64,000 nt of DNA from positions 506,252 through 570,251 of the forward strand of contig OY970216.1 of NCBI GenBank assembly GCA_963713955.1, in the 5' to 3' direction. The notes beneath the pieces are model-generated. The model saw only the letters and a program-made list of their open reading frames with translations, made no database searches and had not been told where the DNA came from. A program made the position numbers and the translations under genes. Shown here one piece after another: positions 58,968-61,937 of the stretch. Each line of letters starts with the position of its first letter. Positions within the stretch are counted from its first letter, which is position 1. The stretch is from an uncultured bacterium (GTDB taxonomy: Bacteria > Patescibacteriota > Minisyncoccia > UBA6257 > GWB1-50-10).

Positions 58968-59270
58968 ATGAAGTACTGGAAGGGAATCGTCTTTTTGGTA
59001 GTCTTCGGCGTCGTCGGCTGGGGGCTCGTAAGTTTGTATAGTTCCAGAAACGAAGCGGTCCAGAAAGCGGCGACGCTGAAGGGTAATCTCGATAAGGTTC
59101 AATCGGAGAACCAAGCTTTGGCATCGCAGCTCGAATACTTCCAAAAACCGGAAAATCTTCTCAAGGAACTGAAGGAGCAGACAACCTATAAAAACCCCGG
59201 GGAAAAAGTTATAATAGTCGTGCCCGGCGTAACAAGCACAACGAGCACGACATCCGCCAAAAGCCCATAA
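58968..59270 (+). CDS. FtsB/DivIC-like protein
   Basis: TM, coiled coil, Y..PGEKVIIV. Confidence 0.7.
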   Translation: MKYWKGIVFLVVFGVVGWGLVSLYSSRNEAVQKAATLKGNLDKVQSENQALASQLEYFQKPENLLKELKEQTTYKNPGEKVIIVVPGVTSTTSTTSAKSP

Positions 59271-59327
59271 GGGCATTTAGGCGGACCCGCCACAATGCGA
59301 AGCTTTGGGCGGGACAAGCGCACCAAA

Positions 59328-59606
59328 ATGTTCTATACCTATATCCTTCTGTGTTCAAGTAGTAAGACACCGAGAAAAATATTCTACGTCGGATCATCCG
59401 ATGACCTGAAAAGAAGATTCGACGAGCATAGAAGAGGTAAGGTGAAAACTACGAAAATATTTGATAAGATATTTTTGGTGTATTACGAAGCTTGCAGGAA
59501 TAAGACCGATGCCAGAAAAAGAGAGTTGCAGCTAAAAACCGGGTTCGGCAGAGGATACATCAACAAAAGGATAGCGACAGATCTAAGTAGGGCGGGATTC
59601 GTATAG
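59328..59606 (+). CDS. Small GIY-YIG nuclease
   Basis: YTYIL...FYVG...DLKRRFDEH, YYEA, ARKRELQLK. Confidence 0.9.
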   Translation: MFYTYILLCSSSKTPRKIFYVGSSDDLKRRFDEHRRGKVKTTKIFDKIFLVYYEACRNKTDARKRELQLKTGFGRGYINKRIATDLSRAGFV

Positions 59607-59805
59607 TGGCAGTACGCTTGCTTCCCAAGCCCCGTACAATAACAACGATCAAAGTTACTTGCGAGCATGGTTTAGTGGCAGAATGCGACCTTCCCAAGGT
59701 TGAGACGGGGGTTCGATTCCCCCTACTCGCACAAATTATCACAAGCAATCGTTGTTATTGTAACAGGGCAAGCAAGACGCACCGGTTCGATCCCGGTATC
59801 CCGCA
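59592..59805 (+). tRNA. Outer tRNA-Gly(CCC) interrupted in the anticodon loop by a 143-nt insertion
   Basis: Joining 59592-59627 to 59771-59805 gives a canonical 71-nt cloverleaf: GCGGGAT/ATCCCGC, CTTGC-TT-CCC-AA-GCAAG, ACCGG-TTCGATC-CCGGT. Confidence 0.85.
59661..59731 (+). tRNA. tRNA-Gly(CCC), nested inner copy
   Basis: GCGAGCA/TACTCGC (one C:A mismatch), CGACC-TT-CCC-AA-GGTTG, GGGGG-TTCGATT-CCCCC. Confidence 0.88.
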
Positions 59806-59830
59806 TCAAAGTTGACTAATTAGTACGATC

Positions 59831-60316
59831 ATGAACGATCTAGATTTACTGAAGCGAGATTTACTATTGGAAACACAAAGGTGTATAGATCTTTTTAATT
59901 CCCAAGTTTTCACTAACCATCAAATTTTCACCCAATCCGCTTTTATCGAAATTTTGATCCGTTTAAATGACATCCTCCAAGTGTTAAGCGAAAAGAGTAG
60001 CAGGATAATCTGGCGAGACGATGTCCAAATTAACGACCGCATCAAGGATATCACAGACTTGGTAAATAATTTACGTAACGCTGCTTGTCACATTGATAGT
60101 CCAGAAAACTACATAAGCAATTCTAAGGTGAAGTTTGTTTTCAATACTTTTACTGGAAAATGCCCAAACGCATTTGAGATTGGAGAGAATATTTCGTTAG
60201 GCAACGAATACGAAGATGATGCAGCTTTTTATTATGGAGATAAAAGGATTTATCTAAGCAGACATATTAAACGACTCTTAGAGGAATTACCCGACAAAAT
60301 TAAAAATCTAGGATAA
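59831..60316 (+). CDS. Hypothetical protein (AT-rich)
   Basis: 161-aa ORF containing LRNAACH, an RxxxxH motif reminiscent of HEPN. Confidence 0.7.
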   Translation: MNDLDLLKRDLLLETQRCIDLFNSQVFTNHQIFTQSAFIEILIRLNDILQVLSEKSSRIIWRDDVQINDRIKDITDLVNNLRNAACHIDSPENYISNSKVKFVFNTFTGKCPNAFEIGENISLGNEYEDDAAFYYGDKRIYLSRHIKRLLEELPDKIKNLG

Positions 60317-60873: not shown

Positions 60874-61131
60874 ATGAAGAAAACATATCGCACCGCTCCC
60901 GAGGTGAAGGAGCAGATATTGAAGAGAATCAAGGAGGAAGGGATCCCGGTCGTCCAGGCCGCCAAGGAACACGGTCTGAATCCCGCCACCATATACAACT
61001 GGCTGGGAAGGGGCGTGAAAGGCACCCCCACGATCGGTGAACTCGTCCGCCTCAAGCGCCAGAACGAAGAGCTCCTCGCCCTCGTGGGCGAGCTCACCCT
61101 GGCCTCCTCACGCACTCAAAAAAAGCGTTGA
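60874..61131 (+). CDS. IS3 transposase OrfA
   Basis: HTH ...AAKEHGLNPATIYNW; A7G slippery run at the end. Confidence 0.9.
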   Translation: MKKTYRTAPEVKEQILKRIKEEGIPVVQAAKEHGLNPATIYNWLGRGVKGTPTIGELVRLKRQNEELLALVGELTLASSRTQKKR

Positions 61132-61937
61132 TCAAAAAGCAGAAGAAGACGAAGTGGGAACTTGCCCGTGAACTCGGCCTCTCCCGCGCCTCCCTCTACT
61201 ATGTCTCGAAACAATCGCCCAAGGATTGGTCGCTCAAGGAAAGGATCATATCAGTCTTGAGAGACCATCCTTCATACGGCTTCAGAAGAGTGGCTTTGGA
61301 GCTCAAGATCAACAAAAAAAGAGCCCAACGGGTGATGAGGCTCTTCGGGATGAAGGCATATCGGAGAAGGGGCAGAAGGCCAAGGAAAACGGGCTTCTCG
61401 AGTATCCTGTATCCCAATCTCCTTCAGAAGAACTTCCCCAAAGGATTGAACGATATCTGGGTGGCGGACTTCACGTACATCCCGTACCAAGGGAAGTTCC
61501 TGTATCTCGCCACCGTGATGGATTTGTTTGCGAGGGAGATCGTGGGCTGGGCCGTGATGAATACCCACTCGGTGCCTCTGGTCCTCCAGGCACTCTTCTC
61601 CGCGGCGGAACATCATCCGAGACCCAACATCTTCCACTCGGACAACGGAAGGGAGTATGGCTCAAGGATCTTCACCGGAGCTCTTTTGAACCTCGGCGTC
61701 AGGATATCGAGATCGAGGAAGTCATCGCCATGGGAGAACGGCTACCAGGAGTCCTTCTACTCCCAGTTCAAGGTGGATCTGGGCGATCCGGAGAGGTTCA
61801 AATCGCTGGGAGAGCTGGTCTACGAGATCCATCGCCTGGTCTGGGACTACAACCACCGGAGAATCCACTCCGCCCTCAGGATGCCGCCTGCACTGTTCTC
61901 GAATCGCTACCAGAAACTTGTCGAAAAAGTGTCTTAA
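61128..61937 (+). CDS. IS3 transposase OrfB (DDE)
   Basis: WVADFTYI, HSDNGREY, ENGYQESF, YNHRRIHSAL. Confidence 0.93.
   Translation: MIKKQKKTKWELARELGLSRASLYYVSKQSPKDWSLKERIISVLRDHPSYGFRRVALELKINKKRAQRVMRLFGMKAYRRRGRRPRKTGFSSILYPNLLQKNFPKGLNDIWVADFTYIPYQGKFLYLATVMDLFAREIVGWAVMNTHSVPLVLQALFSAAEHHPRPNIFHSDNGREYGSRIFTGALLNLGVRISRSRKSSPWENGYQESFYSQFKVDLGDPERFKSLGELVYEIHRLVWDYNHRRIHSALRMPPALFSNRYQKLVEKVS

Follow-up and report, generated by a model that had tools for sequence, protein, structure and literature searches.

In a 64,000-nt stretch of the genome of an uncultured patescibacterium (assembly GCA_963713955.1, contig OY970216.1, forward-strand positions 506,252 to 570,251; hereafter the window), a tRNA-Gly(CCC) gene is interrupted by a palindromic insert of 139 nt (59630-59768), and this insert contains another, complete tRNA-Gly(CCC) gene at 59661-59732; the whole nest occupies 59592-59805. 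We propose that the insert is a small non-autonomous cassette, similar to a miniature inverted-repeat transposable element (MITE), which disrupts a tRNA gene and supplies its replacement, leaving the outer halves as relics; we put the probability of this reading at roughly 0.75. It is carried by a family of elements with recurring ends and a flanking duplication, by empty and filled sites, by serial nesting, by a decay series of outer copies and by the absence of the known splicing enzymes from the host genomes. An initial annotation had offered three readings of the nest: a splicing route yielding two isodecoders from one transcript, an element that breaks a tRNA and brings the substitute with it, and protection of the anticodon loop or integration site. 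The second gains support from the inverted repeats, the 4-nt repeat, empty sites, copies with other cargo or none, serial and tandem insertions and the decay of outer copies; the first finds no support in the tests described below, and nothing was found in favor of the third.

A tRNA-Gly gene inside the anticodon loop of another

The genome that contains the window (G000 in coordinates, its contig C1) is a single contig of 804,691 bp with 49.8% G+C and 99.8% completeness; genomes of relatives are numbered in the same style (G002, G004 and so on), and loci from relatives and metagenomes carry the prefix L. ARAGORN finds 47 tRNA genes in it, among which the glycine anticodons UCC, GCC and CCC occur once each, and the CCC gene is the inner gene of the nest. 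The parts of the nest, in window coordinates, are these.

59592..59629, + strand: outer tRNA-Gly(CCC), 5' part; 38 nt with the whole anticodon loop and G39, ending in CAAG
59630..59768, + strand: palindromic cassette; 139 nt, starts CCCCGTAC, finishes ACAGGG
59630..59649, + strand: left arm, terminal inverted repeat, in which 59635-59649 forms a perfect stem with 59748-59762
59650..59660, + strand: 5' spacer from left arm to inner tRNA; kin spacers (..GAGC..CTT) in other cassettes
59661..59732, + strand: inner tRNA-Gly(CCC), the cargo; ARAGORN, and Rfam RF00005 at 60.9 bits
59733..59747, + strand: 3' spacer with the conserved ..CAAGCA motif; from sequence and cassette comparison
59748..59768, + strand: right arm, terminal inverted repeat; pairs with the left arm
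59769..59772, + strand: right copy of the flanking repeat, CAAG; a target-site duplication, or an element-borne end mimicking one
59773..59805, + strand: outer tRNA-Gly(CCC), 3' part; 33 nt, from what remains of the anticodon stem through the variable loop, T arm and acceptor 3' strand to the discriminator

The left copy of the flanking repeat is the CAAG at 59626-59629 that closes the outer 5' part. The architecture agrees with the initial annotation: excision of 59628-59770 yields a 71-nt tRNA-Gly(CCC) that ARAGORN also recognizes, its stems paired with one G-T wobble in the D stem; the inner gene is complete according to both ARAGORN on the raw sequence and Rfam; the closing helix consists of the perfect 15-bp stem and an additional GCCC/GGGC helix; and because CAAGC occurs at both 59626-59630 and 59769-59773, the junction is ambiguous by 5 nt. 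Along the arms, 22 of 30 terminal positions align around the perfect 15-bp core, so that terminal inverted repeats are present. Folding of the 214-nt unit gave -79.8 kcal/mol (z = -5.4), a stability reached by none of 200 shuffles.

The outer 5' part resembles the genome's own tRNA-Gly(GCC) (23 of 24 nt) as well as uninterrupted tRNA-Gly(CCC) genes of relatives. Inner and outer tRNAs of the window are 68% identical; the inner one, which has a single C6.A67 mismatch in the acceptor stem where the outer has none, is presumably the working gene. The initial annotation's statement that the nest is no recent tandem duplication holds for the window; it does not extend to G011, in which inner and outer copies are identical, or to a tRNA-Lys nest in which they are nearly so. 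A scan for promoters and terminators gave no signal above shuffles. The arm 15-mer also occurs at G000:35588-35602, with no partner or context there, and we took this match as chance.

The cassette belongs to a family of short palindromes

The ends of the window's cassette recur at at least 15 other places in its own genome, and homologous cassettes are found in other genomes. A 13-nt left-junction pattern matched the own genome five times and the reversed-sequence control not once, and a relaxed search recovered at least 15 hairpins with the base CCCCGYAC...GTRCGGGG; CAAG comes directly after most of these, and CCAAG often stands before them. The loops are unrelated in sequence, the smallest being a tetraloop (4 nt) and the largest about 100 nt long. 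With these hairpins and a six-copy sister family with ends CCCCGTAGG..., the genome holds several copies of such elements, as is expected of MITEs.

Comparison with relatives revealed empty sites. At G000:327104-327204, G004 lacks exactly 105 nt, corresponding to a 101-nt element plus 4 nt; the element is flanked by TTGA on both sides, as against a single TTCA in G004, and the surroundings are well conserved. At a second site, a hairpin within a repeat family with four copies in G000, the G005 copy of the repeat lacks exactly 35 nt, the 31-nt hairpin and one CAAG. Filled and empty sites thus differ by the element and a short target-site duplication (101 + 4 and 31 + 4 nt), clean 4-nt duplications being visible at copies other than the window's when judged against empty sites, and in the window CAAG stands on both sides. 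A further element, G000:39344-39417, is absent from relatives, in a region too variable for its ends to be placed cleanly. Rfam searches of four other hairpin loci returned rRNA, tRNA and weak group I matches in the 23S gene and none to the hairpins.

The 105-nt insertion at G000:C1:327104-327204 amounts to 35 codons and lies in sequence that is conserved and coding-like in the sister genomes, and may represent an in-frame insertion within a protein gene. The repeat family that bears the 31-nt hairpin is about 110 nt long and has copies at G000:C1:44780-44990, 493770-493960, 729100-729260 (minus strand) and 735100-735260 (minus strand), two of which flank the rRNA operon. Each consists of a variable, covarying outer helix round a conserved core (CTCAGGCAGTCTCC...) and contains the hairpin. 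Genomes of the same genus give at most 13 matches to this repeat, which has no Rfam match, and the hairpin is absent from the aligned G005 copy (two G005 copies by match coordinates).

The sister palindrome family, with ends CCCCGTAGGACAAC..., has its six copies at G000:C1:2980, 65353, 95277, 249925, 449680 and 763230, each 123-142 nt long. Its ends are conserved over about 20 nt (CCCCGTAGGACAACTTCGAA...) and its interiors are very different; every copy has ATG on its left and TATG on its right, as though inserted at start codons.

Nested tRNA-Gly genes in relatives

BLAST of the 214-nt unit against 60 relatives gave, among the matches read, nests or partial nests in seven genomes (G013, G057, G004, G037, G008, G011 and G052), and G388 came to light when 400 genomes of the order were searched by pattern. 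A pattern scan of genome contigs returned at least 119 stretches, mostly chance matches in unrelated bacteria, with at least four nests among the matches listed; a metagenome scan returned 19 stretches, comprising 10 nests and 9 chance or coding matches. After removal of duplicates, the census consists of the window and at least 19 further tRNA-Gly loci, one of the source scans contributing only from among the matches listed, and the insertion site is identical in all of these further nests. The layout for which the initial annotation had suggested a scan recurs, with different sequences, in independent genomes and metagenome contigs. Because the 15-nt junction pattern was found in none of 400 other genomes sampled across the phylum, the CCCCGYA form is restricted to a narrower group.

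This recurrence also bears on the quality of the assembly. Repeated tRNA-like sequence can mislead assemblers, and contigs of two DNA runs matched only short tRNA-like pieces from other organisms, bridging no junction. Against this, the same architecture is built from different sequences in independent genomes and metagenome contigs, and the own genome is one contig; we consider an assembly artefact extremely unlikely.

Some loci carry more than one insertion, or another anticodon. L002 and L056 are UCC genes nested in UCC genes, and L041 has a tandem pair of elements with CAAG after each. In L075, a Falkowbacteria record, the nest is three tRNA-Gly(CCC) genes deep, all three fully paired, and the junctions read CCAAG/CCCCGCACC...GGTGCGGGG/CAAG at both levels.

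Eight nested units align over their arms and spacers (..GAGC..CTT before the tRNA, ..CAAGCA after it), mostly with a one-base bulge in the right arm. RNAalifold on the eight cassettes recovered both cloverleaves and the arm helix, with compensatory changes at 27 of 67 pairs, of which 6 belong to the arms. Every outer copy was once a working host gene, so covariation of the outer stems carries no information; that of the arms says that pairing itself has been kept, as a DNA hairpin or as an RNA helix.

Outer copies form a decay series

We assessed the state of the outer genes by excising the element and one repeat and running ARAGORN on what remained; a brute-force deletion scan with the same program was dropped for its many spurious "outer tRNAs" of other identities. 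The innermost tRNA was called in 20 of 20 loci. An outer tRNA-Gly was restored in 12 of them (the window, L002, L011, L075, L076, L166, L234, L236, L238, L241, L242 and L244), and the outer copy was damaged or half lost in the other 8, as follows.

Outer copy needing an additional GC-rich hairpin excised (2 loci): L056, valid afterwards; L047, 3' acceptor strand still unpaired
Outer copy not restored (3 loci): L233, L243, L055
Outer copy with one side missing (3 loci): L005, 5' part; L024 and L041, right arm or 3' part

Additional GC-rich hairpins are the damage seen in L047, L056 and L243; in L047 the acceptor strand has decayed as well, and L055 has an odd anticodon loop. The sister loci L233 and L238 share their cassette, and the outer 5' part that is intact in L238 has been partly replaced by a hairpin in L233. 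Two of the 12 restored loci, L234 and L236, contain in addition orphan or truncated pieces of a further outermost layer. The states of the outer copies are a decay series, as expected if the inner gene alone is needed.

The relic halves of L047, L056, L233 and L243 contain short GC-rich palindromes of the type CCTGCC...GGCAGG, one of which also lies in a copy of the 110-nt repeat family (G000:C1, about 729215, minus strand). By their look they are one more class of very small insertion elements.

Synteny and allele turnover

Two genes precede the nest in the window.

58968..59270, + strand: DivIC-like gene (Pfam PF04977; traced across loci by tblastn), a synteny marker
59295..59606, + strand: small GIY-YIG nuclease gene (Pfam PF01541, E = 3.8e-13); at its 3' end it shares 15 nt with the start of the outer tRNA

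The order LepA-DivIC-tRNA-Gly(CCC) is conserved both within the family and outside it; in most relatives the gene at this place is plain. In G002, G005 and G006, of the same genus, the uninterrupted gene at the syntenic locus is of the window's inner type; in other relatives it is of the window's outer type. In G008, at the same locus and in the same genus, the roles are swapped, with the window's inner type forming the broken shell and its outer type the cargo. Given this reversal, alleles of the window's types replace each other through successive invasions.

One alternative dispenses with a mobile element: a fragile palindrome in the tRNA gene would be the site of duplication and fold-back repair, and nests would result. 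The identical copies of G011, whose arms lack the CCCCG motif, would fit such local rearrangement, as would an inner tRNA-Lys that equals the resident type except for its acceptor stem. It does not account for cassettes from different families and orders that share one backbone (ends, spacers and ..CAAGCA) despite differing host tRNAs, for the same ends at non-tRNA sites with empty-site controls, or for the 68% identity of inner and outer genes in the window. We therefore regard local rearrangement as very unlikely.

A tRNA-Lys nest in the same genome

A second nest, in a lysine gene, lies elsewhere in the genome. The hairpin at G000:275520-275641 holds a whole tRNA-Lys(UUU) in its loop and stands amid pieces of another tRNA-Lys, whose D loop is broken by two hairpins, the first without cargo and the second with the tRNA. 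Two genomes of the same genus, G002 and G005, have the outer tRNA-Lys(UUU) uninterrupted, G004 is nested as G000 is, and G006 has a hairpin relic upstream of an intact tRNA-Lys. The inner gene is identical to the resident type except in its acceptor stem. Because the 3' strand of the D arm is unrecognizable in both G000 and G004, the outer tRNA-Lys is a pseudogene.

Upstream of the tRNA-Lys of G002, G004, G005 and G006 (L193-L196) is a tRNA gene that seems to have a long insert after CTGT in the anticodon loop, possibly an intron-bearing tRNA-Asn. The equivalent place in G000 is occupied by an intron-less tRNA-Asn with a GIY-YIG gene before it.

Tests of splicing

If the insert were instead an RNA-level intron, the entire unit would be transcribed, the inner tRNA set free and the outer halves, kept together by the long stem, cut and ligated by a bacterial pathway not yet described, and one transcript would give two, or three, tRNA-Gly molecules. 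The insert does lie in the anticodon loop, beside the intron site of archaea and eukaryotes, with a 15-bp stem that joins the halves; the arms covary; and 12 of 20 outer genes are restorable, including both outer layers of the L075 triple nest. In addition, by analogy, the base of the hairpin with the C and A that follow it resembles an acceptor-stem minihelix, which RNase P or RNase Z might recognize.

The search for EndA-like nucleases and RtcB proposed in the initial annotation came out negative in 6 of 6 host genomes. With the archaeal control positive, EndA (PF01974) was matched neither in the own genome, at E up to 1, nor in any of the five other nest hosts; RtcB (PF01139) was likewise absent from the own genome and the five other hosts, with positive controls, other RNA ligase families not having been searched. 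The bulge-helix-bulge motif (3-nt bulge, 4-bp helix, 3-nt bulge) does not form at the junctions in the fold of 59592-59805, which shows an extended anticodon stem, a 4-bp helix, 1-nt bulges and, on the 5' strand, a 5-nt bulge that contains the anticodon; the poor fit to this motif noted at the outset is thereby borne out. Rfam gave the inner tRNA alone at the gathering score, and a search of window positions 59400-60000 at E up to 10, including group I (RF00028), likewise matched tRNA alone, with no ribozyme or intron. Group I introns have a U at the end of the 5' exon and a G at the end of the intron. The six equivalent junctions of the window are preceded by C, C, A, A, G or C, and with no U among these the rule for group I ends is broken. 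Furthermore, 8 of 20 outer genes are damaged beyond mending by splicing, and elsewhere the same hairpins are insertions in DNA that have empty counterparts, one such insertion lying in sequence that looks coding. These results make splicing of the outer halves quite unlikely.

The same genome has a tRNA-Thr(GGT) at G000:C1:735505-735777 (minus strand) with a 199-nt intron after the anticodon; its 5' exon ends in T and its intron in G, as in group I introns, and weak Rfam group I matches lie nearby inside the 23S rRNA gene. ARAGORN also reports a tRNA with the anticodon CTA, which would read the stop codon TAG, at G000:C1:190461-190533 (minus strand), and a tRNA-Ile(TAT) at G000:C1:148426-148498.

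The GIY-YIG neighbor and candidate mobilizing enzymes

The small GIY-YIG nuclease gene beside the nest raises the alternative of homing, in which this nuclease, or a similar one, would cut cassette-free tRNA genes and repair on a cassette-bearing allele would copy the cassette in, much as free-standing homing endonucleases spread. In the window the gene runs into the outer tRNA at its 5' end, another adjoins the tRNA-Lys nest and a third lies 41 nt upstream of a tRNA-Ala; at 10 of 30 loci of relatives a tRNA starts -9 to +89 nt downstream of a GIY-YIG homologue, as against an estimated 0.6% or so by chance. Phage T4 offers a precedent in SegB, a GIY-YIG homing endonuclease within a tRNA gene cluster. 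Consistent linkage between nuclease and cassette is lacking, the gene being linked in the window and absent from five other nests: L002, L011 and L024 have no GIY-YIG gene in 3 kb each, and DivIC directly precedes the nest in G008 and G037. The tRNA genes beside GIY-YIG genes are of many kinds and mostly un-nested, the 90-aa proteins have no Pfam-visible DNA-binding domain, and homing leaves the 4-nt duplications at unrelated sites unexplained. Homing thus seems unlikely, and we treat the GIY-YIG gene as a separate resident of tRNA loci whose link to tRNA genes is real but general.

Three of the four small GIY-YIG genes of the genome lie directly upstream of tRNA genes (window 59295-59606; G000:C1:275836-276042 and 338082-338294). 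The protein encoded beside the nest has 90-100 aa; the loci of relatives are L199-L227.

Two candidates for an autonomous partner were rejected. A Y1-type transposase-like gene (G000:774733-775509) has no motif hairpins beside it. At 60874-61937, some 1 kb downstream from the nest, lies an IS3-family pair (HTH_Tnp_1, then rve), for which no terminal inverted repeats could be detected. As for a tRNA-targeting integrative element, the 139-nt insert has no open reading frame of its own, and the sole tyrosine recombinase found is 433 kb away.

A proposed model for disruption and replacement

We suggest that the cassette would insert at CCAAG, which lies at the anticodon loop's 3' side in every tRNA-Gly gene (anticodon NCC, A37, A38, G39), and would thereby leave the resident gene as two non-functional pieces. 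The cargo tRNA would then be freed from the long transcript by the cell's usual enzymes of 5' and 3' tRNA maturation, and because the cargo would take over decoding, the insertion would cost the cell nothing. Since the cargo itself carries CCAAG and is open to re-invasion, double and triple nests would follow, and the outer halves would decay afterwards. On this model only the inner tRNA would be functional, and the cassette would be moved by an enzyme supplied in trans.

The match between inner and outer anticodons is probably explained by selection. It would need no special targeting because cassettes in tRNA genes that they cannot replace would be lost: a cargo-less copy in tRNA-Gly would kill the gene, a copy with the same anticodon would be neutral, and only insertions of the latter kind would be seen. 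Gene conversion between inner and outer copies could make them alike, as in G011, where they are identical, and in tRNA-Lys, where they are nearly so. The long stem is likely to be needed. It could serve transposition by forming a hairpin in single-stranded DNA, or it could form a helix in the RNA and so separate the inner tRNA from its look-alike flanks.

Several observations weigh against this proposal. A tRNA-Gly(CCC) may be dispensable where tRNA-Gly(UCC) is present, and both occur in the own genome; because the UCC tRNA may suffice, the argument from an essential gene is weakened for the CCC nests. The proposal does not account for the first capture of a cargo tRNA. The tRNA-Lys inserts lack a clean duplication, and at some copies the right CAAG is retained next to a left flank that is not CAAG, so that the right-hand CAAG may belong to the element itself and not be a genuine duplication. 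Copies share just 8-12 or so terminal nucleotides, and the remainder of their arms differs between copies yet stays complementary; such covarying arms are unusual for a cut-and-paste element read as double-stranded DNA and point to a selected hairpin. Twelve of 20 outer genes are still restorable, the two stacked layers of L075 among them, and in the window it is the outer tRNA that is free of mismatches and the inner one that has one; restorable outer copies fit recent insertion, but selection on the outer copy would also fit. Finally, no longer element with the same ends and a transposase was found at spacings of 0.6-6 kb in the own genome, or in the fetched loci.

Beyond the single locus, we lean slightly towards the view that these cassettes form a selfish disrupt-and-replace lineage: tiny palindromes specialized on the tRNA-Gly anticodon loop, with a sister form in tRNA-Lys, which can colonize single-copy tRNA genes because a working copy comes with them, re-invade their own cargo and swap alleles among ultra-small bacteria. 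Mobile DNA in essential RNA genes usually persists by self-splicing or by rebuilding the part of the gene that it displaces. The evidence presented here points to a third way of surviving in a tRNA gene, in which a whole spare gene is brought along. If so, it would explain horizontal, allele-by-allele replacement of tRNA genes in very small genomes. For annotation, tRNA finders give the innermost gene only and miss the shells, and a nest can pass for an intron-bearing gene. A covarying, bulged hairpin with a conserved base of 8-12 nt hints at an enzyme that reads a folded strand, which is of interest for site-specific insertion. Should the outer copies be spliced after all, they would represent a new bacterial route of RNA splicing.

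Comparison with known systems

MITEs and the palindromic elements of reduced genomes, such as those of Rickettsia, are short, non-coding sequences with inverted repeats and a flanking duplication, present in many copies in genes and RNA genes. The cassette family, of about 30-150 nt, has the same traits, including one 35-codon insertion in coding-looking sequence. It differs in that its cargo is a complete tRNA gene of the disrupted kind, in that only 8-12 terminal nucleotides are shared and the arms covary, and in that no partner transposase was found. Islands and prophages with tyrosine integrases also use tRNA genes as landing sites and leave a working tRNA, some of them crossing over in the anticodon loop; they carry an integrase and just the 3' part of the tRNA, with direct repeats bounding a large element. 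The cassette likewise lands in a conserved tRNA gene at which a working tRNA remains, whereas here a whole tRNA is contained in a 139-nt palindrome without integrase and the old gene is left as two halves.

To our knowledge, no archaeal intron holds a tRNA. Archaeal tRNA introns, transposed introns and split or tri-split tRNAs combine inserts near the anticodon loop with complementary leaders (Fujishima et al., as cited in PMC10714607). The likeness extends to inserts in the anticodon loop, related inserts at several tRNA positions and halves brought together by complementarity; archaeal introns need the bulge-helix-bulge, EndA and RtcB, none of which was found here. Group I introns interrupt the anticodon loops of bacterial tRNAs, as described in bioRxiv 10.1101/2020.01.27.920355. 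The tRNA-Gly insert interrupts the same loop, and the 199-nt intron of the genome's own tRNA-Thr(GGT) has the look of a group I intron. Unlike group I introns, the glycine insert has no Rfam intron match at E up to 10 and no U before its 5' junction, and its non-tRNA part is about 67 nt.

In the literature searched, to which supplements and subscription journals did not belong, we found neither a bacterial tRNA gene with another tRNA inside it nor a palindromic element carrying a tRNA. The nearest subjects were split tRNAs, the transposition of introns in archaea, bacterial tRNAs with group I introns, and introns that interrupt the rRNA genes of the same bacterial group. Synthetic cleave-and-rescue elements are engineered, nuclease-based constructs that disrupt a needed gene and provide a rescue copy recoded to immunity. 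The cassettes resemble them in joining disruption to replacement from within the element, and differ in that the natural rescue copy retains the target site and is re-invaded. If our proposal is correct, they would be, as far as we know, a natural counterpart of these engineered elements.

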